64,000 nt of DNA from a virus. The notes under the pieces were generated by a model. The model was not told the DNA's origin. It saw nothing but the letters and a program-made list of their open reading frames with translations, and did not search any database. The translations under genes and the position numbers were made by a program. Location of the stretch: the IMG/VR virus record IMGVR_UViG_3300025000_001646, positions 1 through 64,000 of that record; one strand, given 5' to 3'. Of the stretch, positions 1 to 64,000 are shown one piece after another. The first letter of the stretch is position 1; each line of letters opens with the position of its first letter.

Positions 1-2
1 AC

Positions 3-2441
3 CCGAGTGGCTGATACGATGTTTTACCAATGATTAAGCACCACGACGGGCAAATGGCAAAAGCTGCCCTTTGTCAATTCTTAGAGTTAGGAAATAATGG
101 AACTGGTAGTTGGGCATTAAGTCAAGATCAATCATCTTGGCTTATGATGGCAATACAATCTCTTCTTGATGACATTGCCGCTACTTTTGACAGTTATGTA
201 ATAGCTCCTCTTATAGATTGGAATTTTGGCACACAAGCCTACCCTAGACTTTCTTTTGAGCAAACAAATTCTCAATCCAAACAATTAATGATACAAGCCT
301 TTCAAGCTATTCTTGGTCAAGGCTCTTTACCTTCTGATTTTGTTAATGAAATTATTAACAAAGCGGCTGTTGAACTTAATCTTGAATATGAACCAAAAAC
401 TAAAGAAGAGTTTGAAGCTGAAACAAAAGAACCAGAGGAAGAACCAGAAGCTCCAGTAGAAGAACAAATAGAAGAACCAGAAGAAGTTATTGAAGATGAA
501 TGAGAGACAGAAGATGAATTAAACAATCAAGTTGAAGAAAAAAATACAGAACTTGAAGATTTATATAATAAATTAGACTCTAAAGAGAAAGAATTAAAAT
601 GAGAAATTGAAAAAGGTTTAGTTGATAGAGGTAAGGCTATTTCTGAGGCTCTTAAAGAATATTGGAGAAAAAAAGGTAAGAAAAAAGAAGAAGAACCAAA
701 GTGAAGAGAAAAAAAATGAAATACTCCAGATGAAAGAAAAGCTAGAGTTGCTTGAATGAAACAAAGAGCAGAGTCTTGAAAAGTAGAAAGACTTACAAAT
801 ATAGTAAAAGAACAAGACAAGGCTATTTCTTGAGCTAAAGATTTGCTTAGACAACTTTCTAATACAAAATCAATAACTAAAGACAAGGCACTTAAAGATA
901 AACTTTTGTGAGAAATTGCTAAACAAAAAGAAGTAATTGCTCAAATGCTTTGAAAAAAATCTGAATTAAAAGATAATCTTTCTGGTGCAAAATCAGAAGA
1001 AAAAGCTATTAAAGCAAAAGAAAAAGAAAAGGCTAAAGCTCAAAAAGAAAGAGAAAAAGAAGCTAAAAGAAAAGAAAGAGATGCTAAACAAAAAGAGAAA
1101 GAAAAAGCTAAGGCAGAAAAAGAAAAGGTTAAACAGAAAAGAGACAAAATAAAAGAAGAAATTTCATCTATACAATCAGAGATAGCAAGATTAAATATAA
1201 AGGCTTCTGATGCTAAAGATAAATGAGCAAAAGAAAAAATAAAAAATGAAATTAATAGAAAGAAAGAAGAAATATTGGCTAAAAAAGAATGATTTAAAAA
1301 TCTTTCAGAAAATGATAGTGATTTTGTTGAATTATATGATGATTGGTCGTTTGAATATGACTCTTGCATAGATTTATTGGATGAAGTAGCAAAAGAAAAA
1401 AAATACTGGAGACCAATGACTAAATATGAAGAAAGAGTAAATTTTGAAGCAATAGAAAAAGAAATGGACAAATGAGAAGATGAAACTAAGAAAAAACTTT
1501 GAGAAATTATAGACAAACAAAGAAGAGACTTGGCTAATCAAATCACAGAAATTCTAAAATCTTGAGACCCTAAAAAACTAGACACACTTACAATTAAATA
1601 CCAGAATGAATATAGCAAAGCTATTGGAGAAACTTACAAAAAGTTATTTGAGGAAGGAAAAAGAAGAGCTGCTGATGAAATTAAAGTCCCTGCTCCTTGA
1701 AATAATAAAGAAGTCAAAGACTTTATAGAACAAAAAATTAAATATTCTACTGATGTTCATCAAGAAAATATTTTGAAGCAAATAAAAGCTCCAATATTAG
1801 AAAAGTTAAAAAATAAAATTCAACTTTCTGATTTAGACGATGCAATGGATATTCTTTTCAATACAGACGAGCTTTCTGACACTGTTGAAGACATTATTTC
1901 AGCAACAGTGGTAGCAGAATCTTTTAACACTTGAAGAGATTTAGTTTTTAAAGCTAATGACGACCAAATATATGGTTATGAGTATTCAGCTTTGATGGAT
2001 TCTGATACTTGCGACTATTGTGCTAGTCTAGATTGAAGGGTTGTAGAGCCAAATAGTCCAGAATTTGAACAATATAGTCCAATTCAACATTTTAATTGCA
2101 GATGTATTTGGGTAGCAATACTTAAAGATGAAGAAGAACCACCAGAATTTACTGGTGTACCAAATTCAATTCCTCCTTCTACTCTTTCGACTTTCAAAAA
2201 TCTTACTACAATAATTCCTCTAAAGACTAATAAATCGGCTGTAAATATGGCCAAAAAAGAATTAGAAAGACTTGAGAGAGACACTGAAAGGTACGAAGAA
2301 AACGAAATATACGAAGACAGGGTAAAAACTAATAAGAAAAAAATAAAACAGCTTAAAAGGTCTGTTTGACTTTCAGATGAACAACAAGATGCCTTGAAAG
2401 ATTTTATTTCAGAAATTAACTCTTTAAATCTAAATGACTAA
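3..2441 (+). CDS. Portal protein (Mu gp29/DUF935-like, 5' partial) fused via a long charged coiled coil to a Mu gpF/SPP1 gp7-like head morphogenesis domain; TGA=Gly
   Basis: One frame open to TAA 2439-2441 if TGA is sense. N-terminal part LCQFLELG...GSWALS...IAPLIDWNFG resembles Mu-type portals. C-terminal YEYSALMDSDTCDYCASLD(TGA)RV...QHFNCRCIW is the gpF/gp7 signature. Confidence 0.85.
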
Positions 2442-3471
2442 AATAAGTGAATTAAAAAAATCGGTAGAAAAACTTGTCAAGAAATTTACTTGAGAAGATT
2501 TTATTGTAGAGCTAAAAGAAAAAGATGCTTTACAAGTACAAGATGAAATCGAGAGTAAGTTACAAGGAGAATCTGTTTCAGAAATTCTTAATCTTATTGA
2601 AATAAACAAGTGAATAAGAAAATTAAATGAAGCTATTTGAATGCTTGATATTCAGCAACAAGATTTTTCAGAAATTACTGATGAGATTAAGTTACTCCAA
2701 GACTACGTGAATGCAATAGCAATTCCAAACGAAGTAACTGTAAAAAACTTTCCAGCTAAACAAGTAATTGAATGAGAAGTTAAAATCAAAGATGAAGTAA
2801 GCATTAAAGACTTGAAAAAACTTTCTGATTCTCTTTTGGAGATTAAGAAGGCTATTGATGAAGGCAATAAAAAAGAAATGAAAATTGACAAAGTAGATTT
2901 TAATTGAGATGTAAATGTCAAAAATATAGGAAAGATCGAGAAAGTACTTTGAGAAATACAAGGATTGCTTTCTAAAATTAATACAGTAAAAACACAAAAG
3001 GTTGAAGTGGTAAATCAATTAAGAGAAAGAGAATTTCCTACAACAATGAAAGTAATTCTTGATTGAGTAAGTCTTGATGCTGTAAATAAATCAGATTTTC
3101 CTCTTCCAGTTAGGCTTAGTGATGGAGAAAAATTTTATAATGGTATGGCAAAGGCAGTCGGTGGTGCTATTATGGCATCTCCTCGAACTACTTCTCTTGA
3201 GGGATTTTCTGGAACCTGTAAAAGTACCGCTGTAACTGTTTGATTAACGGCTGTTTTGCTTCCCACCTCTTCGCTTGGTTCAAGAAAAAGTATGGAAATA
3301 ACTAATAACTCTACTAACACAATATTTATAGGTTGAAGCGATGTAACAGTGGCTAATTGAGTGCCTTTATTTAAGAAATCTACTAAATCTATTCCTGCTT
3401 GAGATTGACTTTCTGTTTATGCTATTTCTGATGTGGCTGGAAATGATGTTCGTACTTTAGAAATAAGTTAA
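2434..3471 (+). CDS. Hypothetical virion-associated protein; TGA=Gly
   Basis: ATG 2434 overlaps the portal end; the frame is open to TAA with many internal TGA; beta-rich C-terminus RKSMEITNNSTNTIFIGGSDVT. Confidence 0.65.
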
Positions 3472-3483
3472 TCTTTATAAAAT

Positions 3484-6400
3484 ATGTCAAAAATAATATA
3501 TACCGACGATAATCCAGCTGGCAAACTTTCCTTGCAAGGAAAAATAGTAGCTGGCGGAACCTTAACTTGAGTCACCTGATTAAATTATGATGTTTCTTAC
3601 ACTCTTTCTGGAAAAGAATCTACCACAAATGAGACAACAGAATGAGTTTATGTGGCTTCTCCTTATAATTATTGTTATTTAACTGATTGAAATGATGATC
3701 AGCTACAAGATTCTGGTTGAAATAGATTATATTGAAGAATAACTTTATCTTGAAGCGTATGGACACTTTCTTTTTATTCAAGTATTGCCTGAGTAGAAAC
3801 TCCATATAATTTTATAGTAGCTCAAAATATTAAATGGTATTACCATCAACTTTATAGCAGGGATAATGTCCCAGCTATTTCTGATAACGAAATATATATT
3901 CCAGATGAAGTAATAGCAGTTGGCGGCCATGTCCAAAATACTGATACTGGTACTGACAAAACTTCTTGGGTGACTAATTCTTGAAGTGCTACACAAAAAG
4001 CAACGCTAGACACTAGCGATATGACCGCTAATAAAACGATTTGAGTAGAATCGTTAAATCAAACAGTTTTACATACTTCTAATTATAACAATCCTCATCA
4101 AGTTTCAGCCAATCAAATTGGTGCTGATAAAATAGTTGATGAGATTAATCAAAGTGCTACTCACGACATTAATTCCAATAATCTTTGATCAGATGTAGTT
4201 ACTTCTTCTGATAATGTGAATAAGTTAGCAGACATTTCATCTACTGGTGCTGAAATAGAGGATGCAGTTTCTAAAAGGCATAATCAAAATACTGATACTT
4301 GAACAAGTGAGACTGATTTTAACATTAATTCATCTTCTATCACTCAAAAGGCTACACTTGATACGAGTGATATGACAGCCAATAAATCATTATGAATAGA
4401 GGCTTTAAATCAAACAATTTTGCATACAACAAATTTCAATAATCCTCATCAAGTTAGTGCTAATCAAGTTTGAGCTGATGAAATTATAGACGAAATAAAT
4501 CTAAATTGAACTCACGATATTGATTCAAATAATTTGTCTTCTGATGTAGTTACTTCTGCCGACAATATTAGTAAATTAGCAGACATTACTTCTCCTTGAG
4601 CGGATATTGAAGATGCTGTAACTAAAAGGCATTCTCAAAATACGGACACTGGTACTACTGAAACTGATTTTGACATTAACTCTGGAAGTGTAACTCAAAA
4701 AGCTACACTCGATTCTAGTGATATGACTGCGAATAAGTCTCTTCGACTTAATGACTTATATGAGGCTGGAGAACACTGGGACAAATCAAATCATCCTTGG
4801 ATAGACAAATCACAAAGTTGGACTGAAAATCAAAATTTTGAAAAATGAATTAAGGCACAACATAATACTATTGATTGAGAATGAAGCGAATTAAAAATTG
4901 AATCAATTCAATTTGATTTAAATCCTTCAGTTGCTCGTGCAGAAGGTAAAGCTTTTTGGAATGCTGATGATTGAACTCTTAATCTTTGAATGCCTTGATC
5001 AAATGTAAATTTACAAGTAGGTCAAGAAACTCTAGTAAGATGTAAAGAAGCATCATGACAAACTATTCTTAATGGTAATGTTGTTTATATAAGTGGAGCT
5101 TCTGGAGACAGACCAGAGGTTACTTTAGCTGATGCTGATACTTATAACACTAGTTTTGTTCTCGGTATTGCCACTGAAGATTTTGTTGGTGCTACTGGTT
5201 ATGTAACTATAACTGGTATGGTAAGAGATGTTGATACTAGTGGAATGACAGAAGGTGCTGTAATATGGCTTTCTCAAACAGCTGGTGCTTTTACTACTAC
5301 TAGACCTACCGCTCCCGCAATTAGTATATTTTTGGGTTATATAGTAAAGGTTCACGCTGTTGAAGGTATAATAATAATCAGACCTACTCTTGTTCCTAGG
5401 CTACAAGCTCTTTCAGATGTATATCAGGAAACTCCTAGTGACAATGAAATACCTCAATGGAATCAAGCTAATGCTAGATTTGAACTTAACGATACTCCAG
5501 AATTTGCTGATGTAACTATCACTGGTCTATCTGGTTCAGGAGTGATAACTTCAACTAGCGTAGAAACTTCTCTTGAAAATATAGACGAAGCTCTTTTTAT
5601 TGCTCGTAAACCAACTGGTATAACACCAGAGGAAGCTGCTAAGTTTACTTTGGATTATGATTACGCTACACAAGTATTAACACTTACTAAAATAAGTAAT
5701 TGGTATTACTATTTCAAAGGTAGAAAAGTATTGGTAACTGGAAACATAGTTTGTACTGCTCATACTAACTCTTATGGAACTTATTTCTATTCGTTTAATG
5801 ACGCTACTGGTGCAGTAACTGTAAGCAACTCAGTATTCGACATATCTAACACTGTTCAAATAGCCTACGTACTTTATAACCCAACTGCTACTGATACTAT
5901 AAAAGGTATATGTTTTGAAGAAAGACATGGATTGCAAATGGATGGTAAGACTCACGAATATCTACACGAAACAAGAGGGACTATTTATGAGGAAGGTGGT
6001 GCTTTAGCTGATTATACTCCTTTAACAGATACAACAGCTGCTACTACCTACTCTCTAGCCTCTACCGTCTTTGATGATGAGGATAAAGAAATAACAACCG
6101 CAGCACAAGCAGACGGTTCTAATTATGTTCATATGTGGTATACTGCCGCAGGTCAACTTGATTGGTTAACTGCTCAACCACTTCCTTATCAAATAGCAAG
6201 TAATAATATAGTTTATAATCCAGTCGGTTCCGCTCTAGTACAAGTAACTACTAACAACAGATATTTTAATTTATATCCGATAGTCACTAACTCTGTATCG
6301 GCTACTTTTGATAATATCGTATTAATAGGTAGAGGACTTTATACTTCTCTTGCTTTGGCTCAAGCTGAATCTTTCAATACGTACTTCACAAGAGTTGGAC

Positions 6401-8814
6401 TTCTAGCTGAATTTGTCCCTATGTATAAGATAACAATGAGATACACTACCTCATATTCAACCACTACTGGAAAATCAAGAATAGAAGGTGTACAAACTCT
6501 AAGAGGTCTAGTCACAATCACTGGTGGAGTACCTCCTACCGATCACTTATCTTTGGCTAACTTAACTGGCGGTACTTATACAGACGGTGGACATACAAAT
6601 TTAACTCAACAAACTGTAGTCGCTTCAACTGCTCCTACAGTAGATAGTGATATAGACTCTTTTAAAGAAGGTTCTCATTGGATCAAGCAAGACACTAACA
6701 CTCTTTATCACTGTGTAGATAATGCTGACGGTGCTGCTGTTTGGTATGGTCAAAACCAAGGACTTCTCACTACTGACAATGTTACTTTTGGCAACATAAT
6801 TGCCAGTGGTGACTTAACTGTAAACGGCACAACTACAACTATAAATTCAACTACTCTTTCAGTAGAAGATAAAAACATAACAATGGGAGACGTAGACACT
6901 CCAACAGACGTAACCGCTGACGGAGGTGGTATCACTCTAAAAGGTGCTACCGATAAGACGATAACTTGGGACAACGCTAATGATAACTGGACTTCAAGTG
7001 AACACTGGAACTTAGTAACAGGTAAAGACTTTAAAATAAACAACGTAAGCGTATTAAATGCAACCACTCTTGGTTCAAGTGTAGTGGCTTCATCTCTTAC
7101 CAGCGTAGGAACTCTTGCTAATCTAACAGTAACAAACGCACCAACTTTTAGTGCGATGACTTTGGGTTCTGTTCTATTTGCTGGGACTGCTGGTTTACTA
7201 TCACAAGATAACGCTAACTTCTTTTGGGATAATACTAATAAGAGATTGGGTATAGCAACTGCAACACCAAGTACAAAATTGGATGTGGTTTTTGATGTGA
7301 ATACTGGTGTTCTATTTCAAGATAATAAAACAGATGCTACAGAAAAAGTATTTAGACTTGGAACAACGCATTATACAAACGCAGAAGAACCTTTTTATGC
7401 TTATAAAGCTGTTTCTTCATCAACAGTAAACAGTGTAGATATTGGTGGTGGTACTTCTTTTGGAAACGCAGCTACAGATATATATTTTTTTACTGCAGCT
7501 AATAATACAACAGTTACTGGTACTGAAAGAATGAGAATAACAAGTACTGGTACTATAGGTATAGGAACTACTGTGCCAAGGTCAACTTTAGATGTTTTAG
7601 GAACTGGTATAGTAAATACCAGAATAGCTAGTAACAGTAATATAGTTTCATTAAGAATAAATGGTACAGAAGCTTCTCCTACCGTTGTCGTAAATACAAA
7701 TATTATAGGTGTACTTAGCTTTCAAGGACAATATAGCTCAACTGTTGGAGAATTTATAACAGGAGCCCAAATAAGAGCAACTGCTGTCGGTGACTTTTCA
7801 AGCACAACAAATGCACCAACTGATTTAATATTTTACACAGCTAGCACAACTGCTGGGATAACAGAAAGAATGAGAATAGCCAGTTCTGGAAATGTAGGCA
7901 TAGGAACTTCTGCTCCTGATACGTTATTAGTAGTAGGAACTCCTCTAAACTCAACAGGAAATATTCCAGGTATAACCTTAGGAGCTAGTGCTGATAGGTT
8001 TATATCAATAGGTCAAGACAGCACTCATCTAATAAACATGAACTGGAGATATAACGCAACTGCTGGTAGTGCTTATGCTCAAATAAATACTTATGGTTAC
8101 TCTAATCCTATTCAAATAGACGCTTCTAATTTAATTCTACAAGCTAATTCTGCTGGAAAAGTAGGAATAGGAACTACTGCACCAAAAGACACACTTCATT
8201 TATCTAAAAGTGGTTACGGTAGAATATGTTCAACAAGAAGTATGTATCTCCAAGGAAACGCCTATGATGACGCTGGAACATGGAAGAGAATAGCAACAGA
8301 TTATGAACCAACATTGTTTATTATGATAGAAGATGGGTCTTTCGCATTTTTTAATTCTACTGCTGGTGCGGCAGATAGTGAAATTACTTGGACAGAAAAT
8401 TTTAAAATAACAACTACTGGTTCAATAACTACATTGCCAACTTATTCAGTAACAGTAGGAGCTACTAATAGAGATTTATATATAGATAATACTGGACTAA
8501 TAGGATATGTATCATCTATTAGAGAATCAAAAACAAATATTGAATATAACCCAGATACTTCTTGGATATATGATTTGAAACCAGCTGAATTTAATTACAG
8601 GAAAAAAGATAGTGAAGGTAAATATACTGACGAGATTGACGGCGATAAACAATACGGGTTGATTGCTGAAGATGTGAATGAGGTAAAACCAGAACTATGT
8701 TATAAAGACGGTAAAGAATTGAAAGGTGTAAATTATTCAAAACTTATACCAGTATTGTTAAAAGAAATACAAAACCTTAAAAAAGAAATTGATAACCTTA
8801 AACAACTATGATAA
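3484..8814 (+). CDS. Large fibre/receptor-binding protein (~1776 aa) with C-terminal peptidase S74 intramolecular chaperone
   Basis: ATG 3484 is in frame with ORF 5218..8811 when TGA=Gly; it ends TGA-TAA. It has GNVGIGT-type fibre repeats and C-terminal SSIRESKTNI...GLIAEDV...VNYSKLIPVLLKEIQ. Confidence 0.85.
3928..4760 (+). repeat. Intragenic 351-nt (117-aa) tandem repeat, about 2.3 copies
   Basis: HxQNTDTGT motif starts at 3928, 4279 and 4630; QKATLDxSDMTANK and NPHQVSANQ are repeated. Confidence 0.9.
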
Positions 8815-50129: not shown

Positions 50130-50158
50130 TTGATTTTTATAAAAAAAAAGAGTATAAT
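50130..50158 (+). promoter_or_regulatory. Strong early promoter P6
   Basis: TTGATT-17 bp-TATAAT. Confidence 0.8.
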
Positions 50159-50189
50159 TAAAATATATTATTTAATTTAAACTATTTTT

Positions 50190-50801: not shown

Positions 50802-50812
50802 TCTTACTTTTT

Positions 50813-51361: not shown

Positions 51362-51369
51362 CTTATTTT

Positions 51370-51726: not shown

Positions 51727-51728
51727 TT

Positions 51729-52774: not shown

Positions 52775-52943
52775 TTATAAAAACTTCTGTATCTCACTAA
52801 TATAAAAATAAATATTTTTAAAAAATAAATATATCAATATTTTAGATGATTTACGGAGGTGAATAAAAAAGAAAAAGCAGGTATCCAATATAATCAATTA
52901 TAGATTGCTTATTGGTATTAATCCTGCTTTTTTTTTATAAAAA

Positions 52944-53129
52944 TTATTTCTCTGTCAAAATTTTATAAAAGTTTCTCAAAACACTTAACAGAGAAGTCCA
53001 AGCCACAACTTGAATAATTTCTGGAGTAAGTCAGTTCTCTATATTAGCAACAGCCAATAAACCTGCAATGAAACAAGTTATATAAGTTTTTGCAAACGAA
53101 TAGAGATGTTGTAGAATTTTTTCTTTCAT
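52944..53129 (-). CDS. Putative holin (two TM); one TGA=Gly
   Basis: MKEKILQHLYSFAKTYITCFIAGLLAVANIEN(TGA)LTPEIIQVVAWTSLLSVLRNFYKILTEK; downstream of the M23 gene. Confidence 0.65.
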
Positions 53130-53133
53130 AGAA

Positions 53134-53238
53134 TTAAAAAAGGTTTAAAATAGAATTATATAAAAATGATACTATTCCAAAAATTTCTAATATACATAGA
53201 ATCATATATATTAATATGAAATATAAAAATACTTTCAT
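53134..53238 (-). CDS. 34-aa hydrophobic peptide in the lysis cassette
   Basis: TAATG overlap with the M23 stop; MKVFLYFILIYMILCILEIFGIVSFLYNSILNLF. Confidence 0.45.
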   Translation of the reverse strand: MKVFLYFILIYMILCILEIFGIVSFLYNSILNLF

Positions 53239-53729
53239 TAGTATTTAGAGATTTTATGTTGTAGAATCCATCATTTTCAAAAGCAATCGACAAATCATCC
53301 ATAGCCATTATATACATTTATAACATTTCATTTTTCATCTTTATATCTTAATCACCAATGTAGATGTGGTTTTCATTTAGCACAACCACTGTCTCAAGTC
53401 TTGGCTATTAATTGTCATTGAGTAACTTTTGAATTATGAGTAATTAAAATTTCCGATAAATGAGCTAAAACTGTTTGTCTTCTCTTGGCTCAAAATTCTT
53501 CTGTTATATAAATATATTTACCATATCCGTCTATTTCATAGCCAGTGGTTAATATTCAATCAAATGAAGCAAATACTTCTGTTCATATAGGAGTTTTTAG
53601 GTCTACTCAATTGTGTCAAGAAAGTCACCATTTTGCATAAAAAGGTGTTTTTGTTTTTTGGTCAATCCAAGTATTGCCGAAAGGATTGTATTTTGAATCA
53701 AAACCTTCTTTAACTGGTGCAATAATCAT
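53238..53729 (-). CDS. M23 family peptidase (endolysin); 14 TGA=Gly codons in 163 aa
   Basis: HN(TGA)VDL (HxxxD), GYGKYI, LAHLS, KT(TGA)DSG, PHLHW (HxH). Confidence 0.9.
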
Positions 53730-53798
53730 ATAAAAATAAAGTTAAGTCTATATATATTATACTCTTTTTAAGAATATACAACAAGATTGAAAAAAACC

Positions 53799-53827
53799 TT
53801 GAAATAATAATTTAAAAGTTGTAGAAT
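53799..53827 (+). promoter_or_regulatory. sigma70-like promoter, probably leaderless, of the phosphonate operon
   Basis: TTGAAA-17 bp-TAGAAT, followed by ATAATTA and ATG 53835. Confidence 0.6.
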
Positions 53828-53834
53828 ATAATTA

Positions 53835-54866
53835 ATGAAAATTATAAATAAGTCATACAGACCAAAGGTTTTATTCCATTATTCAAATGAGTTTCACTAT
53901 TGCTGATTTGACGATTTAATGATTGAGTTAAGAAAAGATTTTGAGGTTACTAGTTTTTTTGATAGAAGAGTAAACGAAAATGAATATATTTGAATATTAA
54001 GATGTGTAAATCCAGATATTATAATTGATGTAGAATGGGACAGGAGAACAATGGAAAGTGAATTTAAAGACAAAATAAGAATACAATTGCCACATTGACT
54101 AGTATCTAAACATTATATGTATTGAGTGATTTGGAATAATTTTAGATATAATAAAACAATCACTTCTTGACCAGAAATTACTAAACAATTTATTGAAAGA
54201 GGATTGATTCCAAAAGAAAATTTGCTTGAATTAGGTTACCCGAAAATTGACAGACTACATAATGGATTTTATGACAAAGAAAAAATAAAAGAAAATTTAT
54301 GAATAAAAAATAATCTTAAAACTATTCTATACGCTCCTACATTCAAAGAATTTTCTTCTTTCAATTATTTTATTGAAGAAGATGAGGAGTATTTTTATAA
54401 AAGAATAAATTATTTAGCGAATAATTACAACATTATAATTAAGTTACACGCTTGAACACCAAACGAAAAATTTAAGCCGTATTTATTTGGAGAAAATGTT
54501 TACTTAATTTTTGATTATGATATTAGACCTTACCAATACTTAGCTGATATATGTATTTCTGATTTGTCTTCCGTAATATTTGAGTTTGCTTCACAAAACA
54601 AGCCAGTAATACTCCTTAGACCTTATGAAGATAACATTATAGACAAAAATTGAATAGAATGGACTATGAAAGACATAGGGACTAATTGTAAAAATTTAGA
54701 AGATTTAGAGAAGGCAGTTATGGAATATGATAAAAACCCAGAAAAAGACAGTGAAATCAGAGAAAAGTATAACAAACAAATATTTAAAAACTTATGATTT
54801 TCCAGTAAAATTCTAGCAAATAATATTCTAAAATTATATGAATCTAATAGTGCTTTCAGCTGGTAG
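53835..54866 (+). CDS. CDP-glycerol glycerophosphotransferase (TagF/TagB) family protein; TGA=Gly
   Basis: QLPH(TGA), LGYPKID, ILYAPTF, IKLH, ISDLSSVIFEF...KPVI. Confidence 0.85.
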
Positions 54867-55488
54867 ATGAAGTAGGCTTAGACCACTAACAGACAACAAA
54901 CCAAAGGTACTATTGAAAATAAACTGAAAGACTATATTAGAAATGCTAAAAGAAAATGTTTGAGCCGAAAAAAATGTTGTAGTGACTTGATATCTTTGAG
55001 AAAAAATTGAAGAAAATAAGGTTACAAATGATTTATGGTATGAAAATGGTTCGTCTAGTAGTCTTTATTTGGCTAGAAACTACTTAAAATGAGATACAAT
55101 GATAGTTTATGGCGATATGATTATAGACAAAGAAGACTTTGAAGAAATGAAAAATCAAGATTGTATATTGGTAGATGACAAAGAAAAATGAGATGATTAT
55201 GATGAATATGTAAACAAAGACAGTCTTTGACTTAAATATAGAAGCGAGATTTGAGAATGTGAAAGATTTTTGTGAGCAATACATCTAAAAGAAGAAACTG
55301 CTAAAAAACTTTATAAATATTTTAAACCTTGAATGTTAAATTATAAGATTTGATTAGCCGACTTAATATGAGATTTTTTTGATGCTAACAATATAGACTT
55401 CAAAAAAGTTAAAGCTAAAAATAAATGGTTTGAATTAGACAAAATTCAAGATTATATAAATGCAAAAATATATTTTAATGATTATTAA
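54838..55488 (+). CDS. Cytidylyltransferase (LicC/PntC-like NTP transferase); TGA=Gly
   Basis: LSAGR(TGA)SRLRPLTDNKPKVLL, VYGD, WFELD; phosphonate operon context. Confidence 0.8.
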
Positions 55489-55491
55489 AAA

Positions 55492-56370
55492 ATGAAACTT
55501 CCTAAAATAAATTTTCAAGAAAAACTTAACTTAAAATGACAAGTTATAATCACTACATTTGATACTGGATTAAAAGACAATGAAATTATAATGATTTCAG
55601 AAGAGCCTAGCAAAGAAGAATTAGACAAAATAGTTTTTCAAACAATTACTGACACTATTTATGCTATTGGTGGTGGATCAGCTATTGATTGAGCTAAATA
55701 CCTATGCAATAAAGAAGGTAAAAAATTAATAGCAATACCAACAACTTTTTCTGGATCGGCTTCCTCTAGTCACTTAGTATTGAAAGAAAACTGAAAGAAA
55801 AAAGGTTATTCTGGAAATGAATACATACCAGATGAAGTAATAATCATCAACGATTTGCTTTACACTTTACCAGCTAAAACTTTCTTTTATTCTCTTATAG
55901 ATTGTTTTGCACATTCGCAAGAGGCTGTTAGAAGCAATAAGAATAATTTTATTATAGAATTAATTTCTGAAAATATTATAGGAACTTTTGGTAATGTTTT
56001 ACAAATGAAATTTGAGGACTTTATAAAACTTGATGAAAATAAAATGGAAGAAGAAAAAGCATTATTAGTTAGAGATTTTGGAAAAGTTTTATTAGTTATT
56101 TCTCTTTATGCTAGTTATATATTAAGTGAAGCTGGGACTAATTTACCACATGCAATTTCTTATGCTATTAGCAATTATGGACTTTCACATTGAGAAGCTA
56201 TAGCAATAGTTTATGGACTTAATGACAGAAGAATGAAAGACCTTTGAATAGAATTTGATTTAGAAAAAATGACAGATGAAATTTTATTAGATAGACACCA
56301 TTTAGACAATTTTCCTTGAGAAATTTCTAAGGATTTAATATTTAATACACTTAAAAAACTTTATGAATAG
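55492..56370 (+). CDS. Iron-containing alcohol dehydrogenase, putative phosphonoacetaldehyde reductase; TGA=Gly
   Basis: AIGGGSAID(TGA)AK, AIPTT, DCFAHSQE, GTNLPHAISY, H(TGA)EA. Confidence 0.8.
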
Positions 56371-57142
56371 GATTATTGGTTGCCATAATGCAATGACGGC
56401 TATATTATGAGAAGAGGCTTGATTTGATATGCTTTGGGCTTCTTGATTCGAGATTTGCACTTCTAAATGAATACCAGACAAGGATATACTTACTCAAACA
56501 GAATTTCTTGATGCTTTTAGAGAAATTAAAAACTCAGTTAAAATACCAGTAATTATAGATGCTGATACTGGTGGGACTTTAGAACAACTTAAAAGAATGA
56601 TTACTTTTTATAATCAAATTTGAATAGATTGAATATGTATAGAAGACAAGAAATTTCCAAAGACTAATAGTTTTATTGAAAAATGACAAGAACTTGAAGA
56701 AATAGATTTGTTTTGTAAAAAAATAAAGTTATTGAGCAAAGAATTTTCTGGAATGATTTTTGCTAGAATAGAAGCACTTATTGCTGGAAAATGAGAAGAT
56801 GAAGCTATAAAAAGAGCTAAGGAATATATAAAAGCTGGTGCTAATGTTATTTTAATTCATTCAAAAAGCGAAACTCCAGATGAAATAGTCTCTTTTTGCA
56901 GAAGGTATAAGAAGGAATGACTTACTATTCCTATTGCAATTATTCCAACAAAATATACAAGTTTTACTGAAAATTACATAAAAAAATACCCTCAAATTAA
57001 ATATGTTATTTATGCTAATCAATGAATAAGATCTTCAATAAAAGCAATAAAAGAAACTTATAAAAAGATTTTAAAAGATTGAGGCGTAAATAATTTAAAT
57101 ATTTCTACTCTTGATGACTGTTTTAAAATACAATGATTATAG
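56363..57142 (+). CDS. aepX: Phosphoenolpyruvate mutase; TGA=Gly
   Basis: LWAS(TGA)F, DADTG, diagnostic EDKKFPKTNS, ARIEALIAG, LIHSK, IYANQ. Confidence 0.92.
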
Positions 57143-57438
57143 GCGTTCCATATTCTGGCTGTGATTTTAAAGACGCTATTTATTTTCCTAGAGAAAATAG
57201 TGCTTTAGGTTATGCTATTTGAGCTAGACTAGCTTGAAAGGATGTTACTGTATTTATGCAAAACTCTTGATTATGGCATATATGAGATTTATTTTCCTCT
57301 TTCTTAATTCCTAGCAAACTTAAATGAATAAAATTTATTATTAACAACAGAAAAGAGCCAGAGCATCACAAGCATTCTTTTGAAAATATAAATAATCTCT
57401 TAAAAATTTATGGAATTGAAAATGCCGAACTTAACTAG
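57133..57438 (+). CDS. Phosphonopyruvate decarboxylase alpha subunit (split, ComD-like); TGA=Gly
   Basis: GVPYS...RENSALGYAI(TGA)ARLA(TGA)K...FMQNS(TGA)L...EPEHH. Confidence 0.8.
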
Positions 57439-57889
57439 AAGCACAGCTATATTGTCTATTGCAAAATTAAAATATGATGAACCATTAGTTATAGCATCAA
57501 CTTGATTAAATTCAAAAGCTCTTTATTCTTTAGGTCATCGAGACAGATTTTTATATAATAGATGAGCATATTGAGAAACTTGAATAATAGCATTAGGTAT
57601 TGCCGAGAATACTAATAAAGAAGTAGTAGTAATTGATTGAGACGGTAGTTTTCTGGCTTGATTTGCTAATTACCCGATTATATTAGAAAGGAAGCCTAAA
57701 AATTTGCATTATTATATTTTAAGAAACTGAAAAACACAGACTACTTGATGACAACCTCTTATACAATTTCCTAAATTAGACAAATACTTTACTATTTTTG
57801 ATATAGACGAAGACGACAGAAAGCCTCAAAACATAGAAATTACTATTGAAGAAAATGTAAAATCTTTTATGGAATATTTAAAATCTTAA
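57422..57889 (+). CDS. Phosphonopyruvate decarboxylase beta subunit (TPP-binding, ComE-like); TGA=Gly
   Basis: IAST(TGA), ALGIA, VID(TGA)DGS, N(TGA)KTQTT(TGA)(TGA)QP. Confidence 0.82.
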
Positions 57890-57898
57890 TTTTATTTT

Positions 57899-58336
57899 AT
57901 GATTAACGGTGTAAAAATTATTGACGTTAATAGATTCTGGGATGACAGATGATTTTTTGCAGAGGTATGGAGGAAGTCTCAACAATGAGAAATGGCTCAA
58001 ATGTCTTTCACTAAAACTTACCCTTGAGTTGTCAAGGCTTTTCACTACCACGAAAAACAAGATGATTTATGGTTTTGTGTAGAAGGAAATCTAAGAGTAG
58101 TTTTAAAAGACCTTAGAGAAGACTCTCCTACTTTTAATGAAGTGCAAACTATTTATATTGGTGAAAAATCTCAAGCAGTTTATATTCCTAAAATGGTAGC
58201 TCACGGTTATAAAGTTATGGGAGAAAAGCCAGCTAAACTTATTTATTTGACAACACAAGAATATGATGTAAAAAATCCAGACGAGAAAAGAATACCTTAT
58301 GACGAATTTTATGATTGGAAAACAGTTTTTAAGTAA
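57899..58336 (+). CDS. rmlC: dTDP-4-dehydrorhamnose 3,5-epimerase; TGA=Gly
   Basis: DDR(TGA)FFAE, P(TGA)VVKAFHYH, DLREDSPTF, IPKMVAHGY. Confidence 0.88.
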
Positions 58337-58344
58337 AAAATCTA

Positions 58345-58373
58345 TTGTTTTTATAAATTACTATTGGTAGAAT
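58345..58373 (+). promoter_or_regulatory. Promoter of the tRNA gene
   Basis: TTGTTT-17 bp-TAGAAT with TG extension, 12 nt upstream of the tRNA. Confidence 0.55.
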
Positions 58374-58385
58374 AATTATAGATAT

Positions 58386-58460
58386 GCGGGGATGAGGTAA
58401 AGTCTAGCCTGAATCGCTTCAACCGATTAAGTAGGGGATAGTCTCCCCTTCTCCGCTCCA
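58386..58460 (+). tRNA. tRNA-Gly(UCA), TGA-decoding
   Basis: Full cloverleaf: GCGGGGA/TCTCCGC, AGGT/GCCT, AATCG-CT TCA AC-CGATT, 4-nt variable loop, AGGGG/CCCCT, U73, encoded CCA; anticodon 58419-58421. Confidence 0.88.
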
Positions 58461-58475
58461 ATAATTTTTATTTTT

Positions 58476-59357
58476 ATGGGATCATCAAAGCACGGATTAA
58501 AGCCAAATCAAATATCAGTAAAAAGAAAAAGCACTAAAGTAAAAGGTGTTTCTCGTTTAAATCATTGGTCTACTATTTCAAAAATGAATATTGAAGATAA
58601 GAAAGTAAATGGTTATGTAACTAATATAACTAATATAAAAGGAAATACATTTTGGTGGTATTCTAAAGGAAGAAAAACTTGTTTAGACACAGGACTTAAA
58701 TGTGATCCAGATGGTTATAATAGATGGAATACTTATGAAAATCACCTAATAAGAAAAAAGAGATTTAAAAATCGTGTCAGAAAAAATACTATTTAATTTT
58801 ATATTTTTATGGCTCAACACATTGGAATGATATTGGAAGATGAAGATGGAAAATTAATTAAAGACTCTAAATTAAATTTTCAAGATGTTTTAGATAAATG
58901 TGATGTTAGTGATAATGAATGGTTAGGCACAATAGATGAATATGGAAATACTGTATTTAATAATATTCAAATACCTATAATAATTAATGAATTAAAAGAA
59001 TTACCAGTAGAAGAAGAAAATTATACATTAATTAATAAATTTATAAAATTTTTAGAGCAAGCAGAGGATCACGAATATATAAAATTTATTGGAGATTAAC
59101 TTTTAATTTATATGATTATAGAAATACCAGATATAAAAGACCGTAATGGAAAAACAGTAAGAATGGGAGATGTTATATATTTTCCAGAACAAAGTCTTCA
59201 CAATACATTGGTTAGATGGGATGAGGAAGAATTTTGTTTAGTACCTTTTAATTATAAATATTATTATTATAAAGACCAAGAAACTGGAAAAATGTGTCCT
59301 TTTGAAATAGTAGGAAATATAAAAGAAGAACCAAATTTACAATATGGAAGAGATTAA
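58476..59357 (+). other. Three small TGA-free genes (58476-58796, 58809-59099, YopX-like 59112-59357)
   Basis: ORF track; KDRNGKTVRMGDVI...EIVGNI in the third. Confidence 0.65.
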
Positions 59358-59376
59358 TATTTAATTTTATTTTACC

Positions 59377-59562
59377 ATGCCAATAATGCCTTGTGTAAGC
59401 GAAAAAAAGAAAGGTTTTAAATATTGAGAAACTTGAAATTGTTATACCTATGAAGAAGGTAATAAAACTAGTGAAGAAAATGCTAGAGAACAAGCAATCA
59501 AGCAATGACAAGCTATTGAGATTAGCAGACTTAAAAAATATAAAATAACCATTAAAAAATAA
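59377..59562 (+). CDS. Small phage protein; TGA=Gly
   Basis: MPIMPC...KGFKY(TGA)ET(TGA)NCYTY...AIKQ(TGA)QAI. Confidence 0.65.
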
Positions 59563-60279
59563 ATGAAAAAATTTATAATAATATTAAAGGATTTATGAAT
59601 GGGATTATTGATTGCTGGTGTAATTATTTTAGCTTTATTAATTCCTAGCTTTTTGTTAATGATTTCTTGGAATTTAGGATTGGCAACTTTATTCACTAGC
59701 TTACCTAAAATGAATTTAATACAAGCAATTTTTATTGGAGGATTTTTCCATATTTTGACTTATAAATCAACTATTACAAAAACTGAAATTAAAGATATAT
59801 TTAAAAAATAATGATTAATAATGAAATTTATAACGAATTTTTAAATGATAATAACTTATATGAATTTAAAGATAAAACAGGTAAAAAATTTACTTTAGAT
59901 TTAAAAAATATTCATATAATAGAAAAAGTAAATAGTGGAATAGGAGATGAAGGATATGATGATAATAATTATTCTCTATATATAGTTAATAAAAAGAATA
60001 AAAACAATCCTTTATTTCCAAATTTCTTAAAAGATGAAAAAGAAAGAGATAGAATATTCGATGAAATAATAAATACAAAACTTAATCAAGAAGTAAAACA
60101 ATTTAAAAAATAATTTTATATATTTTATGAATACAGACATTGAAAACTGATTCATTCCAGAACAAACAAAAACAGAAACCAATCCAGATGGTGAGAGAAT
60201 AGAAGATTATATTGTAAATCAATTGGCCAGAATAGAGCATCTATTAATAACATTATTAGAGCAATGAAAAAAATCTTAG
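59563..60279 (+). other. Membrane protein (to 59811), hypothetical 59811-60113 and small recoded ORF 60127-60279
   Basis: ORF track plus manual reading. Confidence 0.55.
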
Positions 60280-61079
60280 TTTTTGGTGCTAATGGGATGC
60301 TAGGGAAAGACTTGGTAAAAATAGATTGATTTAAAATTTACCCAGACTATAAAACAGACATTACTAATTGATTACAAGTATTTATAAAGACTTTATTGGT
60401 TAGACCAGATTACATAATTAATTGTGCCGCTTATACTGATGTTGATTGAGCCGAGAATGATGACAATGTTTGAAAATGCTGGAGTGTTAATTCTTGTAGT
60501 AAATTGGTCGGTATATGTAAACTTTTTAATACACCTCTTGTAGCATTTTCTACTGATTATGTTTTTAATTGAAAGAAAAAAGAAGGCTATTCAGAAGACG
60601 AAAAACTTCATAATAATAGACCTCTTGAAATATATTGAATGAGTAAATGGATAATGGAATTTAACATATTAAAAAATCTCAAGAAATATTATATTATTAG
60701 GATTTCATCTCTTTTCGGGAAAAATGGTAAGAATTTCGTAGACTTAATCTTAAATTATGAGAAAGAAATAAACGTGCTTTGAAATAATAAAATGAAACCT
60801 ACTTATACAGTAGATTTAGCAGAGAATGTTAAAAAACTTTTACAACTAGAATATCCTTATTGAACATACCACTTCACAAACGAATGAGCTTGCTCTTGGT
60901 ATGAATTTGCTAAAGAAATAAATAAATACAGAACACAACCAATCAAAATAAACAAGGTAGATGAATTTAAAAGACCAGCCGAGAGACCTCAATATTCTGA
61001 ATTGATTAATAATTCACCTTTAAAAATGAGGCACTGGAAAGAATCTCTCAAAGATTATATTTCTAACATTAAAAAGTAA
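60264..61079 (+). CDS. rmlD: dTDP-4-dehydrorhamnose reductase; TGA=Gly
   Basis: VFGANGMLG, INCAAYTDVD(TGA)AE, STDYVFN(TGA), Y(TGA)MSK, PTYTVDLA, AERPQYS. Confidence 0.9.
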
Positions 61080-61697
61080 ATGACAGAAGAATTTATTCAG
61101 TCTATTAATTGGCACAAAGGCGACCCTATAATAATTAATCCCCTAAAAGATGATCCAGCTATTCCTAATAATCAAGAAGGCTCTTTTTGTGTTGATTTAG
61201 GTTGTGGTAAGAATAAAAGAGAAGGATTTATTGGAGTAGATCAAGCTCCAGACGGAGTAGGCGATATTCAAATCAGACTTGATATATTAAACGACAAATT
61301 ACCTTTCGAAGATAGTTCTGTTGACTGTCTTTTTGCATCACATATAGTCGAACATATAGGCGAAGGCAAAATGATTGCTTTTATGGATGAGTGTTATAGG
61401 GTATTAAAACCTTATGGACTTTTTGAAATTATAGCTCCAGTTTACAATTCTAGTGATGCTTATAGACACCCAGATCATAAGAGATTTATTCATCCAGAAC
61501 TTTGGGGATTTTGGGATCCAGCTAACTGTCAAGAAGACAGAGAATGTTATGGAGTAAAAGCTAAATTCACTCTCGCTATTAATGAAGAAGAAAGAATATT
61601 TGGAGACAGTGAAGAGCCAATGATACTTAGAAAATGTCAGCCTATGAACTTTGTATATAAGAATGGCAATTTTGTTACTCTAGTAGCTATTAAATAA
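61080..61697 (+). CDS. Class I SAM-dependent methyltransferase
   Basis: DLGCG...LPFEDSSVD...HIVEH...RVLKPYG; TGA-free. Confidence 0.85.
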   Translation: MTEEFIQSINWHKGDPIIINPLKDDPAIPNNQEGSFCVDLGCGKNKREGFIGVDQAPDGVGDIQIRLDILNDKLPFEDSSVDCLFASHIVEHIGEGKMIAFMDECYRVLKPYGLFEIIAPVYNSSDAYRHPDHKRFIHPELWGFWDPANCQEDRECYGVKAKFTLAINEEERIFGDSEEPMILRKCQPMNFVYKNGNFVTLVAIK

Positions 61698-61709
61698 TTT
61701 TACATTAAA

Positions 61710-62243
61710 ATGAAATTTCTAACTCCTAAAAATAAACCAAAAGAAGTAAAAAGAATCAAACCAAATAGCAAGAATTATGTAATGAATATTACTGGAGAAA
61801 TAAGTGAAAATACCTTTGTAGATTGGAGATTTGCAGAAAAAGACAACGATTTAGTTTTCAATATAAATTCTTATGGTGGAGATTTAACAACAGCAATGAA
61901 TATATATGAAAGAATGAGAAAAGAAAAAAGAAAAAAAATATGCAAATCTTTTGGAGGAGTAGAGTCTGCCGCTATAAATATTTTTGTAGCAGGAGATGAA
62001 AGAATAGCAGGAATAAACGATGTTTTTATGATTCATAATGGAAAAGTAAATAACAAGACAATAGATGAATTACAATTTTTTATGGATTATGCAAATAGAT
62101 GTTCTGTAATAATAAGCAAAAGACTTTCTGACATAAGTATTAGACCTTTTGAGTTTTGGATGGACTTATTCACTAATGGAAAGAATAACTACTTCACAGG
62201 ACAGGAGATGTACGATTTAGGTGTAGTTACAGAGCTTATATAG
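61710..62243 (+). CDS. ClpP-like protease
   Basis: INSYGGD, ESAA, FMIH. Confidence 0.75.
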   Translation: MKFLTPKNKPKEVKRIKPNSKNYVMNITGEISENTFVDWRFAEKDNDLVFNINSYGGDLTTAMNIYERMRKEKRKKICKSFGGVESAAINIFVAGDERIAGINDVFMIHNGKVNNKTIDELQFFMDYANRCSVIISKRLSDISIRPFEFWMDLFTNGKNNYFTGQEMYDLGVVTELI

Positions 62244-62352
62244 ACAAGAATAAAAATTATGACGTAATAAGAAGTTGGTAGTACAAAGTATTAAAACAGT
62301 ATTTTTGCATTAATCAAGTTTTTTTTAATAAATATTAACTTTTTTTAATAAA

Positions 62353-62876
62353 ATGAATAAATTTGAAACAATAAGATATAAAATATATTATTGTTTTTTA
62401 AAAAAATCAAGAATATGGACTTATTTTAGAGAAGAATTTTTAAATAATTTATTATTTGAATTAGAAAGATTTGACATTGATAAAGAAAGTATTATTAAAA
62501 AATATAAAGATGAATTAATTAAAATAAGAAAAATAAACAAAAATTTATAATATGATTTTTTAATAAAATGACGAAAAAATCATTCAAAAATCTAATGGAA
62601 AAATTCATTGAGATTAAAGAAAATGTAGAAAATGTAAATAAAGCATTGAAAGTATTCGAGCCAGACTTTAATTACCTTTGCTTTAGTAAATACGAATATA
62701 TATTTTTAGACGCTCTAAAAGAAGCTATGAATGATGAGTATGACTGGATTGATTATTTCATATACGAATTAAATTTCGGGAAAAAAGCTAAAAAAGATTC
62801 TGTTACAGAAAAAGGCAAGAATATTCCTATTAAGACAATAGACAACCTTTATAATTTAATCACTAAAAATAAATGA
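62353..62876 (+). other. Two hypothetical genes (62353-62550, 62568-62876)
   Basis: ORF track. Confidence 0.6.
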
Positions 62877-63577
62877 AAATAAAATTTGCTTCTCTGGTAA
62901 TTCTTTCATTCAATCGTAGAAAGATGATGGAAAGATCACTTAATTCTTTATTCGCTAATACTACATTTCCCTATGAATTAATCGTTGTAGATGACGGTAG
63001 TCACGATGATGATACTGTAGACTACTTAATGAGACTTTATAGACTTGGAAAGATTTCAACTCTTATTCTTAATGGAGGAAAGAATATGGGCGTAGGTGTA
63101 GGAATAAATAGAGGATTTGATATTGCTCACGGAGACATTGTCTTGAAATTAGATGCCGACCTTGAATATGCTCCTGGTTGGTTAGAGAAGACAGTTAAGA
63201 TTATGGAGACATTTCCAGAAATAGGGGTAATGGGATTATTTAAATACTTCCACGAACCAGTAGACCATAGAAAAATGTTTATTAGAAGAGAAGAAAGAGA
63301 CGGAGTAGCTGTAGAAGTACATCAAGATTTCGTTGGCAGTGCTATGGTAATTACTAAAGAACTTTACAATAAGAAAGGAAAGTTTGGAGAATTTAGTGCG
63401 GCTTTTGCTGAAGACACTATTTGGAAAATGGCAAGAAAATCAGAAGGCTACTGGTTAGCTCTTCCAGAAGAAGACTTGGTTTATAACTTTGGCTTTGGTA
63501 GGATTACTTCAATTCTAGTTAATAACGATGGTACTGTTAGGGACATCGCTCAAGAACCTTTAATCTTTAATAAATAA
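62873..63577 (+). CDS. Glycosyltransferase family 2 (TGA-free)
   Basis: VILSFNR...VVDDGS...KLDAD. Confidence 0.9.
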   Translation: MKIKFASLVILSFNRRKMMERSLNSLFANTTFPYELIVVDDGSHDDDTVDYLMRLYRLGKISTLILNGGKNMGVGVGINRGFDIAHGDIVLKLDADLEYAPGWLEKTVKIMETFPEIGVMGLFKYFHEPVDHRKMFIRREERDGVAVEVHQDFVGSAMVITKELYNKKGKFGEFSAAFAEDTIWKMARKSEGYWLALPEEDLVYNFGFGRITSILVNNDGTVRDIAQEPLIFNK

Positions 63578-63580
63578 ATT

Positions 63581-63883
63581 ATGTTATATTATAATTTCGT
63601 TTTAATCGGTTGTGAAAACATAATAGAGATTGATATTTATAACTTTTTAAAAGAAAATAATTTTGAAGTTGTTAAAACAAAATTTGAAAGTACAATGGAA
63701 GAAAATAAACAAAACTATTTTATAGAATTTAAAGGAGAAAATGCTATACGAGAAAATTTCAAAAATTTAAAAACTAACGCAAGATTTATTATGGATTTTG
63801 AAGGTAAGGTAGAGGAAGAAGAAAAAGAAGGATGGATTATTAAAGGTCAAAAAATGTTATTCAGAGAATTAATTAATCAATAA
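63581..63883 (+). CDS. Hypothetical protein
   Basis: ORF track. Confidence 0.55.
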   Translation: MLYYNFVLIGCENIIEIDIYNFLKENNFEVVKTKFESTMEENKQNYFIEFKGENAIRENFKNLKTNARFIMDFEGKVEEEEKEGWIIKGQKMLFRELINQ

Positions 63884-63884
63884 T

Positions 63885-64000
63885 ATGAGAATTGCAGTAA
63901 TATGAGCATTTTCTACTTGAAAAACTACTTATGTTGAAAACTATAAAGGAAAAGAATTAAAAGCTATTAATCTTGAAAGATGATTTAATTCTCAAGAAGA
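63885..64000 (+). CDS. P-loop NTPase/kinase (3' partial); TGA=Gly
   Basis: MRIAVI(TGA)AFST(TGA)KTT = Walker A GxxxxGKT. Confidence 0.75.

Follow-up and report, generated by a model that had tools for sequence, protein, structure and literature searches.

TGA as a glycine codon in some gene blocks, and its absence from others, in a complete groundwater phage genome

Why would a single phage use TGA as a frequent sense codon in about half of its genes and keep it out of a run of 53 others? The question is raised by the virus record IMGVR_UViG_3300025000_001646 of IMG/VR, a single record of 84,486 bases whose first 64,000 bases constitute the window analysed here (positions are in window numbering unless marked as contig positions). 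An earlier reading of the same DNA (the original prediction) had proposed that the phage begins infection under the standard code and switches TGA to glycine for its late genes. The record carries a 127-base repeat at its ends and the assembly closes to ~84.4 kb; the genome is that of a complete tailed phage of groundwater origin, with a G+C content of ~0.29 and almost every gene on the plus strand. A gene caller that applies a single code breaks half of this genome, and the record was rated 72% complete by CheckV despite the direct terminal repeats that define its IMG/VR class. As the portal/Mu-F reading frame crosses the junction of the 127-base terminal overlap, the window begins inside a gene.

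The fraction of the contig covered by open reading frames (ORFs) of at least 100 amino acids rises from 0.46 under table 11 to 0.85 with readthrough of TGA and to 0.53 with readthrough of TAG, so that the comparison of coding density between codes proposed with the original prediction came out in favor of TGA as a sense codon. TGA was translated as X, and the residues opposite X were counted in alignments. In the best PDB alignment of RmlB, 7 of 10 X stood opposite glycine, one of these glycines being the second in the nucleotide-binding motif, and none stood opposite tryptophan; the best PDB alignment of GroEL placed 7 of 9 X opposite glycine and 0 opposite tryptophan. Local tblastn searches against 94 related loci gave glycine opposite 354 of 690 aligned X, followed by lysine (45), with tryptophan at 5; these counts are not independent, since the same column recurs in many loci. 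Against the related genome G404 alone, glycine stood opposite 26 of 62 aligned X. Within the tail-fibre gene, two copies of a 117-codon repeat pair TGA with a glycine codon three times, with serine twice and with alanine once, and a third copy shows glycine at one of the TGA/serine columns.

Codon usage, compared between 44 TGA-free genes (7,368 codons) and 46 genes with at least three TGA (15,252 codons), points the same way. The G+C content at third codon positions (GC3) is 0.193 in the TGA-free set and 0.184 in the recoded set, and the synonymous families are alike in both except for glycine, where GGA, GGT and TGA account for 0.61, 0.31 and 0 of the codons in the TGA-free set and for 0.24, 0.28 and 0.39 in the recoded set. 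GGA is the only codon displaced by TGA, from which it is separated by one G-to-T step. The base following sense TGA (459 sites) is T in 0.21 of cases against a background of 0.22; this lack of context bias gives no sign of release-factor escape. Judged from these alignments and codon counts, TGA is decoded as glycine, the code 25 reassignment, as had been predicted; the accompanying claim that TGA occupies invariant glycines of conserved motifs held for the Rossmann-type motif of RmlB, the only one of the listed motifs examined.

The gene caller used to describe the distribution of TGA was self-trained, and its scoring was blind to TGA and GGN (N, any base). In-frame TGA was found in 63 of the 129 genes called on the contig. 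The 49 genes with at least three TGA hold 470 TGA in 15,450 codons (30.4 per 1000), a rate at which ~262 TGA would be expected in the 8,603 codons of the 66 TGA-free genes. The longest run of TGA-free genes is 21, a length reached in 0 of 100,000 permutations of the gene labels, and the partition into TGA-rich and TGA-free genes is thus far beyond chance. The block at 28004-52774 (53 called genes, 6,832 codons) contains 343 GGN, including 227 GGA, and its only internal TGAs are the three of a 63-codon ORF at 47207-47398. Beyond these three, TGA appears among the called genes of the block only close to the 3' ends of two, 38423-38737 and 40656-40880; the ORFs 28459, 30037 and 48910, which also have a terminal TGA, had been removed by the caller's overlap rule. 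TGA is common in the other two frames of these genes, which indicates that the trinucleotide itself is not depleted. The earlier observation of ~24 kb of early genes with abundant GGA and no internal TGA outside one small ORF was therefore confirmed.

Genes rich in TGA include those for virion proteins (portal/Mu-F, prohead protease, terminase, tail tube, and a tape measure with 35 TGA), for surface sugars and related metabolism (five GT2 and one GT4 glycosyltransferases, RmlA-D, a sugar dehydrogenase, epimerases and the PEP-mutase operon), and for an M23 peptidase (14 TGA in 163 codons), GroEL and a TAGT-like transferase (16 TGA and no GGN). The TGA-free set comprises the replication and recombination genes, the major capsid gene, the GT2 gene at 62873-63577, a methyltransferase gene, a ClpP-like gene and, in the tail fibre, the final 1,197 codons. 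Abundant virion proteins are TGA-poor, with 1 TGA and 13 GGN in the capsid neighbour and 2 TGA and 26 GGN in the tail tube. The split is not simply one of early versus late genes, as the capsid gene, the GT2 gene and the tail-fibre C-terminus are TGA-free. The predicted contrast between late genes that use TGA and early genes that avoid it stands for the replication block on one side and the virion and lysis genes on the other, and fails for these three. Promoter and terminator scans at two block boundaries returned sites no more numerous than in shuffled sequence. The features concerned are as follows.

1-28011, plus strand: TGA-rich block 1, with 4-24 in-frame TGA per gene and genes named from Pfam.
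3-2441, plus strand: portal/Mu-F fusion gene of block 1, TGA-rich, crossing the contig junction.
2434-3471, plus strand: TGA-rich gene of block 1.
3484-8814, plus strand: tail-fibre gene, whose N-terminal 578 codons hold 23 TGA and the 117-codon repeats, and which ends in TGA-TAA.
5218-8811, plus strand: C-terminal 1,197 codons of the tail fibre, TGA-free and of higher G+C (0.34-0.38).
11600-13489, plus strand: prohead protease gene of block 1, TGA-rich.
13515-13934, plus strand: capsid neighbour gene, 1 TGA and 13 GGN.
13969-14913, plus strand: major capsid gene, Mu gpT-like, 0 TGA and 26 GGN, inside the TGA-rich block.
15908-28011, plus strand: TGA-rich 12-kb glycan operon with GT2 genes, GT4, RmlA, RmlB, a UDP-sugar dehydrogenase, epimerases and a methyltransferase.
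28004-52774, plus strand: TGA-free block of 53 called genes, including a DUF4942 methyltransferase, a DnaB-like helicase, two metallophosphatases, a pentapeptide/DUF5758 protein, a Sak annealing protein and exonucleases.
30037-30414, plus strand: DenV-like glycosylase gene in the TGA-free block.
47793-47859, plus strand: second tRNA gene, anticodon ACA, A73, in the TGA-free block (ARAGORN; 49.1 bits with Rfam).
52944-53729, minus strand: lysis cassette, consisting of the M23 peptidase gene (53238-53729, 14 TGA in 163 codons) and a small ORF with 1 TGA.
53835-58336, plus strand: TGA-rich phosphonate operon (TagF-like transferase, nucleotidyltransferase, Fe-ADH, PEP mutase and TPP enzyme pieces), followed by RmlC.
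58386-58460, plus strand: tRNA gene (ARAGORN), anticodon UCA, glycine acceptor identity, after the phosphonate/RmlC operon and before TGA-free genes.
58476-60113, plus strand: mostly TGA-free small genes, the exceptions being candidate ORFs at 59377-59562 (3 TGA) and 59563-59811 (1 TGA).
60264-61079, plus strand: recoded RmlD gene with 9 TGA and TGA-free genes on both sides.
61080-63883, plus strand: TGA-free block 3, with a methyltransferase, a ClpP-like protein, the GT2 gene at 62873-63577 and small ORFs.
Contig 76170-77771 (L001:12170-13771), outside the window: full-length GroEL (Cpn60) gene, E 1.6e-67, 9 TGA.

The ORF at 47207-47398 (plus strand) lies in a largely non-coding stretch near the second tRNA gene and is a candidate gene only. 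Downstream of the capsid gene, ~1 kb (14914-15907) contains no ORF under either code. The sugar and phosphonate gene sets are unusually large for a phage, and RmlA-D are split over three places.

If the early genes were translated under the standard code, TGA might be expected among their terminators. Terminal TGAs of the TGA-free stretches are located at 28609-28611, 30412-30414, 38705-38707, 40860-40862, 49231-49233 and 62874-62876. All six stand in ATGA, which contains the start of the next gene at 28608, 30411, 49230 and 62873, is in frame with the next start at 40859 and is a non-start at 38704. A TAA or TAG lies 2-39 codons past these TGAs, which by our estimate is close to random expectation for the composition. 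The same ATGA junctions occur in recoded genes, where TGA is read through to a TAA or TAG 1-7 codons on (8808, 18540, 57133 and contig 78132), so that such cases arise at similar rates in TGA-free (6) and recoded (4) genes. With TGA read through, TAA or TAG terminates all 44 TGA-free and all 46 recoded genes. The DenV-like protein has 125 amino acids up to its TGA, its Pfam domain stops at residue 79 and its readthrough tail resembles out-of-frame sequence; read through TGA, it gave no PDB match that would fix the C-terminus. The four early genes predicted to end in TGA (30414, 38707, 40862 and 49233) do carry the triplet; however, these are ATGA junctions of the kind also present in late genes, and the fair wording is that TGA is avoided in early genes, its use as a stop there not being demonstrated. 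The idea that infection begins under the standard code finds no support in the gene ends, since no gene needs a TGA terminator and TGA ends are equally rare in both sets. TGA has been shed as a terminator throughout the genome, apart from junction relics. Because they contain no sense TGA and end in TAA, TAG or a backed ATGA, the TGA-free genes would be translated into practically identical proteins whether read by code 11 or by code 25.

A tRNA that could read TGA was part of the original prediction, and the phage does have one: of the two tRNAs found by ARAGORN, that at 58386-58460 has the anticodon UCA. Its sequence and folds give a 7-bp acceptor stem with G1-C72, C2-G71 and G3-C70, U73 and an encoded CCA. 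These three pairs together with U73 constitute the identity set of bacterial glycine tRNAs. The anticodon has C35 but A36, and so lacks the C35 and C36 of bacterial tRNA-Gly; the D loop (AAAGUCUA) lacks GG, and the T loop (AUAGUCU) is non-canonical. The predicted fold is a cloverleaf (-25.6 kcal/mol, z = -1.75). It was not reported by the Rfam tRNA model at the gathering score, and blastn against the phage collection gave no match. Given its non-canonical D and T loops and its score below the Rfam gathering level, this tRNA is unlikely to be the sole decoder of at least 470 codons. The second tRNA has a C32-G38 pair that could narrow its anticodon loop, and its A34 is rare among bacterial tRNAs. 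No release-factor domains were found in the phage.

Relatives of the phage use more than one code. At 50-57% identity, the capsid protein matches many relatives, whose IMG/VR loci have a G+C content of ~0.30; treating TGA as a stop or not hardly alters their ORF coverage, and many of their ORFs terminate in TGA (for example 9 of 18 in L004 and 5 of 11 in L029). The genome G404 (84,644 bases) shares the terminase (39%), the capsid (44%), the tail tube (41.5%) and three early proteins (34-55%); it uses the standard code, with TGA ending 21 of 97 genes, several of them in ATGA overlaps, and its only tRNAs are tRNA-Val and tRNA-Ile. Three smaller genomes (G405-G407; 34-37 kb; capsid 37-40% identical) are TGA-recoded, with X most often opposite glycine; TGA occurs in 35 of 41, 39 of 46 and 38 of 45 of their genes (84-85%), along the whole genome, and they have no tRNA gene. 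Their capsid gene and its neighbour are TGA-free; across four TGA-recoded relatives of the phage, the capsid genes contain 0, 0, 1 and 3 TGA. Avoidance of TGA in the capsid gene is therefore general, while block-wise avoidance is special to this phage. For one further locus (L035) the tally of residues opposite X was noisy (glycine 57, arginine 54, serine 48). Single-protein scans with TerL, the methyltransferase and DnaB found no relatives; RmlA has no relative above 52% identity except the phage's own copy at 96%, as if TGA had been read there as tryptophan. The early genes have no close relative anywhere searched, the best match covering part of one protein at 55-65% identity. One phage-like contig (L091, JAOZRH010000054.1; 11,654 bases, ORF coverage 0.34 versus 0.90, G+C 0.29) is strongly TGA-recoded, has a related capsid gene and was binned in a metagenome-assembled genome labelled Candidatus Neomarinimicrobiota. 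That genome has three hits to the release-factor domain PCRF, and the contig is probably mis-binned.

The explanation that we favor, with a probability of about one half, is that the host is a code-25 bacterium and that the early modules of the phage are code-neutral. The host itself would read UGA as glycine and lack release factor 2 (RF2), as a Patescibacterium of the Gracilibacteria/Absconditabacteria type, with its code being suggested by that of the phage. TGA would then mean glycine throughout infection without any change of code, the phage tRNA-Gly(UCA) would top up the supply for late genes, where TGA makes up 39% of glycine codons, and the early modules would be 'bilingual', as in the TGA-free phages predicted on Gracilibacteria. 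Several observations argue for such a host. TGA is a common glycine codon in the virion (not capsid), lysis, glycan, phosphonate and rml genes, which are readable only where UGA means glycine. No gene relies on a TGA terminator, and junction TGAs occur at like rates in both sets. Five code-25 genomes were sampled for comparison: TGA makes up 0.41-0.75 of glycine codons in the sampled regions and 0.41-0.48 in those genomes of like G+C (0.26-0.27), against 0.39 here. The absence of context bias after TGA, the shared avoidance of TGA in capsid genes and the improbability of the phage tRNA as sole decoder are likewise in favor, as are the precedents offered by the phage RSA-ATP1 (bioRxiv 10.1101/2024.03.08.584096) and by Liu et al. 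(2023, PMC10746230), as far as the available text of each goes. The groundwater origin adds weak support; four sequencing runs of one study, all labelled groundwater metagenome, contain every sampled word of 28001-38000 and may be the source of the record, while four further runs contain small shares only of these words and no RNA dataset was listed among the matching runs. The EF-Tu genes of the five code-25 genomes contain 0, 0, 0, 5 and 12 TGA; together with the capsid avoidance in recoded relatives that lack a tRNA gene, the absence of TGA from three of the five suggests that avoidance of TGA in highly expressed genes is normal there. Code-25 genomes differ widely in the entry of TGA into core genes. 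Where EF-Tu has 0 TGA (G318, G204 and G246) the rpoB match pieces contain 3-5, and where it has 5-12 (G072 and G190) the rpoB pieces sum to ~56-64.

A number of results weigh against a code-25 host. In a cell that always reads UGA as glycine, nothing known would select against TGA in 53 consecutive genes; in the sampled regions of the code-25 genomes, TGA is present in 148 of 158 genes. With the same caller, 62 of the 116 genes of this phage (53%) contain TGA, compared to 84-85% in the three uniformly recoded relatives, and the phage has a tRNA gene that these relatives lack. The standard code is found in its nearest relatives by capsid (50-57%) and in G404. Apart from glycine, the two gene sets agree in synonymous usage, contrary to what recent import of the TGA-free genes would produce. 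The search for a host likewise provided no link to a code-25 bacterium by spacer, DNA or domain searches of 401 genomes. These belong to the class of a genome labelled Candidatus Peribacteria (class of G001), which had been reached by a capsid-alignment scan of species-representative genomes that returned 16 loci, among them a prophage in a 500-kb contig of that label; the prophage's genome has two PCRF hits. The capsid family occurs in 3 of the 401 genomes, namely G153 and the pair G001 and G003, each of which has both release factors in the case of that pair. Cas1 was present in 53 of the 401 genomes; in 60 stretches from these, a crude custom finder identified 45 arrays next to Cas1, with 503 spacers. 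The best spacer matches to the phage had 5 mismatches in 25-29 bases and 7 in 33-34, the same as shuffled spacers, and assignment of the host by spacers from these Gracilibacteria-class genomes, as suggested earlier, was thus unsuccessful. A DNA search of 48001-64000 against the 401 genomes, scoring two candidates per genome such that spacers could be missed, gave only short weak matches.

Other candidate links to a host were rejected. The early gene at 33363-34277 has a 69-71% nucleotide match to three code-25 genomes (G+C 0.26), the sole real match of the early region in the 401 genomes; its N-terminal domain is widespread, including in Fusobacterium and Clostridium prophages. Strict tRNA-pattern searches in five and in three code-25 genomes gave no match, a result whose strictness means that it is not evidence of absence, and the tRNA-pattern matches in IMG/VR were chance matches, with an ARAGORN tRNA(tca) in 0 of 80 loci among the matches listed. 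PCRF hits number one in each of five code-25 genomes of the class, and two or three in four standard-code genomes to which the loci led; the phage has no link to any of these genomes.

There are several other potential explanations for the block-wise pattern. A true temporal switch, in which a standard-code host with RF2 translates the early genes under its own code until a late phage tRNA-Gly(UCA), charged by the host glycyl-tRNA synthetase (GlyRS), takes over while RF2 is silenced or outcompeted, is possible although doubtful; only then would the virion, glycan and lysis genes be completed, by a late-gene gate like that described by Borges et al. but with glycine. Under the switch one would expect 53 consecutive early genes to be wholly without sense TGA, the lysis and virion genes to be loaded with it, and the phage to carry a tRNA(UCA) of the kind absent from the three uniformly recoded relatives. 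It also fits the standard-code nearest relatives and a codon usage that is equal but for GGA to TGA, which indicates selection and not import, as well as the proportion of recoded genes, as 53% falls within the 26-71% given for phages on standard-code hosts and below the ~90% given for code-25 phages in the available text of Borges et al. (bioRxiv 10.1101/2021.08.26.457843). However, TGA terminators are no commoner in early than in late genes, no release-factor gene was found in the phage, and up to 35 TGAs per essential gene show no context bias. The phage tRNA is non-canonical. Bacterial GlyRS uses C36, which this tRNA lacks. In addition, TGA to glycine on a standard-code host is without a report in the literature found by our searches, and RSA-ATP1 shows the same traits with a code-25 host, as far as it is described. 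The alternative offered in the original prediction (a code-25 host, with mosaicism or a dual host range) is no less likely than the switch that it put forward.

A mixed host range is unlikely but would account for much of the evidence. If the phage infected both code-25 and standard-code cells, early genes neutral to the code could start infection in either, with the phage's own tRNA for the late genes, and this would jointly cover the neutrality of the early genes, the genome-wide purge of TGA terminators, the tRNA and the glycine meaning. A broadened host range has been proposed for TGA-free phages of these bacteria in the available text of Liu et al. (PMC10746230), and the capsid family is found both in two standard-code Peribacteria genomes and in phages that read TGA as glycine. 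There is no direct evidence for such a range, and in the standard-code host the phage would still face RF2 as an obstacle. Deep divergence separates code-25 lineages from their standard-code kin, and the host range of a phage is usually narrow, both of which count against it. Least probable is a functionless mosaic, in which the TGA-free stretches are recent imports from standard-code phages. The tail-fibre gene is indeed a chimera, whose TGA-free and G+C-richer C-terminus contains a ~110-amino-acid module 72-79% identical to many phages whose fetched loci need no TGA readthrough, and the N-terminal domain of 33363-34277 is widespread in prophages of standard-code bacteria. However, all of at least five separate TGA-free stretches would need to be recent, 0 of 227 GGA in the main block became TGA although recoded genes turned most GGA into TGA, and GC3 and synonymous usage are as elsewhere in the genome, with no close relatives of the early genes in any of the searches. 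Since equal codon usage, five separate stretches and unconverted GGA are all contrary to recent import, selection against TGA must be what keeps the TGA-free set free of it.

The explanation of the pattern matters for phages that cross between hosts of different codes and for the evolution of such codes. The phage unites two phenomena described apart, the TGA-to-glycine code that Gracilibacteria and Absconditabacteria use and the block-wise, stage-linked recoding of gut phages. With a code-25 host, as we favor, it would reveal strong selection, its cause unexplained, that keeps early genes readable in both codes. With a standard-code host it would represent a change of code driven by a phage, and of a new kind; if the switch were true, it would be the first stage-specific recoding of a stop to glycine and a possible route by which code 25 arose or spread.

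In a standard-code cell, UGA can be read as glycine by a tRNA-Gly(UCA), as glycine-tRNA-derived UGA suppressors of E. coli demonstrate. These laboratory suppressors are weak, whereas at least 470 codons here depend on UGA as glycine. Among phages, block-wise codes have been described with Mgcod (bioRxiv 10.1101/2022.06.29.495998). As in the stage-specific recoding of TAG to glutamine or TGA to tryptophan of the type reported by Borges et al., the recoded stop clusters in genes for virion and lysis functions and is missing from early genes, and the phage has a suppressor tRNA, standard-code relatives and low G+C; unlike in that type, the residue is glycine, the early genes lack TGA as a normal terminator, and the capsid gene and some non-early genes are TGA-free. 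With code-25 phages (Borges et al.; Liu et al.) the phage shares TGA as glycine and its frequent use at conserved glycine positions. It differs from them in the proportion and arrangement of recoded genes, as in-frame TGA is found in ~90% of their genes in the available text of Borges et al., where code-25 hosts were assumed, and in 84-85% of those of our controls, which have no tRNA, compared to 53%, in blocks and with its own tRNA, here. Gracilibacteria and Absconditabacteria have been predicted as hosts of TGA-rich phages as well as of TGA-free ones, with 34 of 38 predicted Gracilibacteria phages lacking in-frame TGA, according to the available text of Liu et al. (2023, PMC10746230). The early block resembles these 'code-11-compatible' phages, so far as that text describes them, in having no in-frame TGA and other stops close to gene ends; they are TGA-free throughout, and this phage only in about half of its genes. 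The literature found by our searches contains no TGA-to-glycine phage on a standard-code host, and no block-wise split of this kind is described in the available text on RSA-ATP1 or in that of Borges et al. or Liu et al. The closest precedent, as far as it is described, is RSA-ATP1, a 39-kb phage of an Absconditicoccaceae host with UGA in 39 of 65 ORFs and its own tRNA-Gly(TCA), which its authors called the first in a patescibacterial phage and for which they speculated on descent from suppressor-tRNA phages of standard-code hosts (bioRxiv 10.1101/2024.03.08.584096). By that description alone, RSA-ATP1 differs in its size, its four tRNAs and its lack of metabolic genes, and it shares with the present phage a tRNA-Gly with a UCA anticodon and the restriction of UGA to part of the genes.

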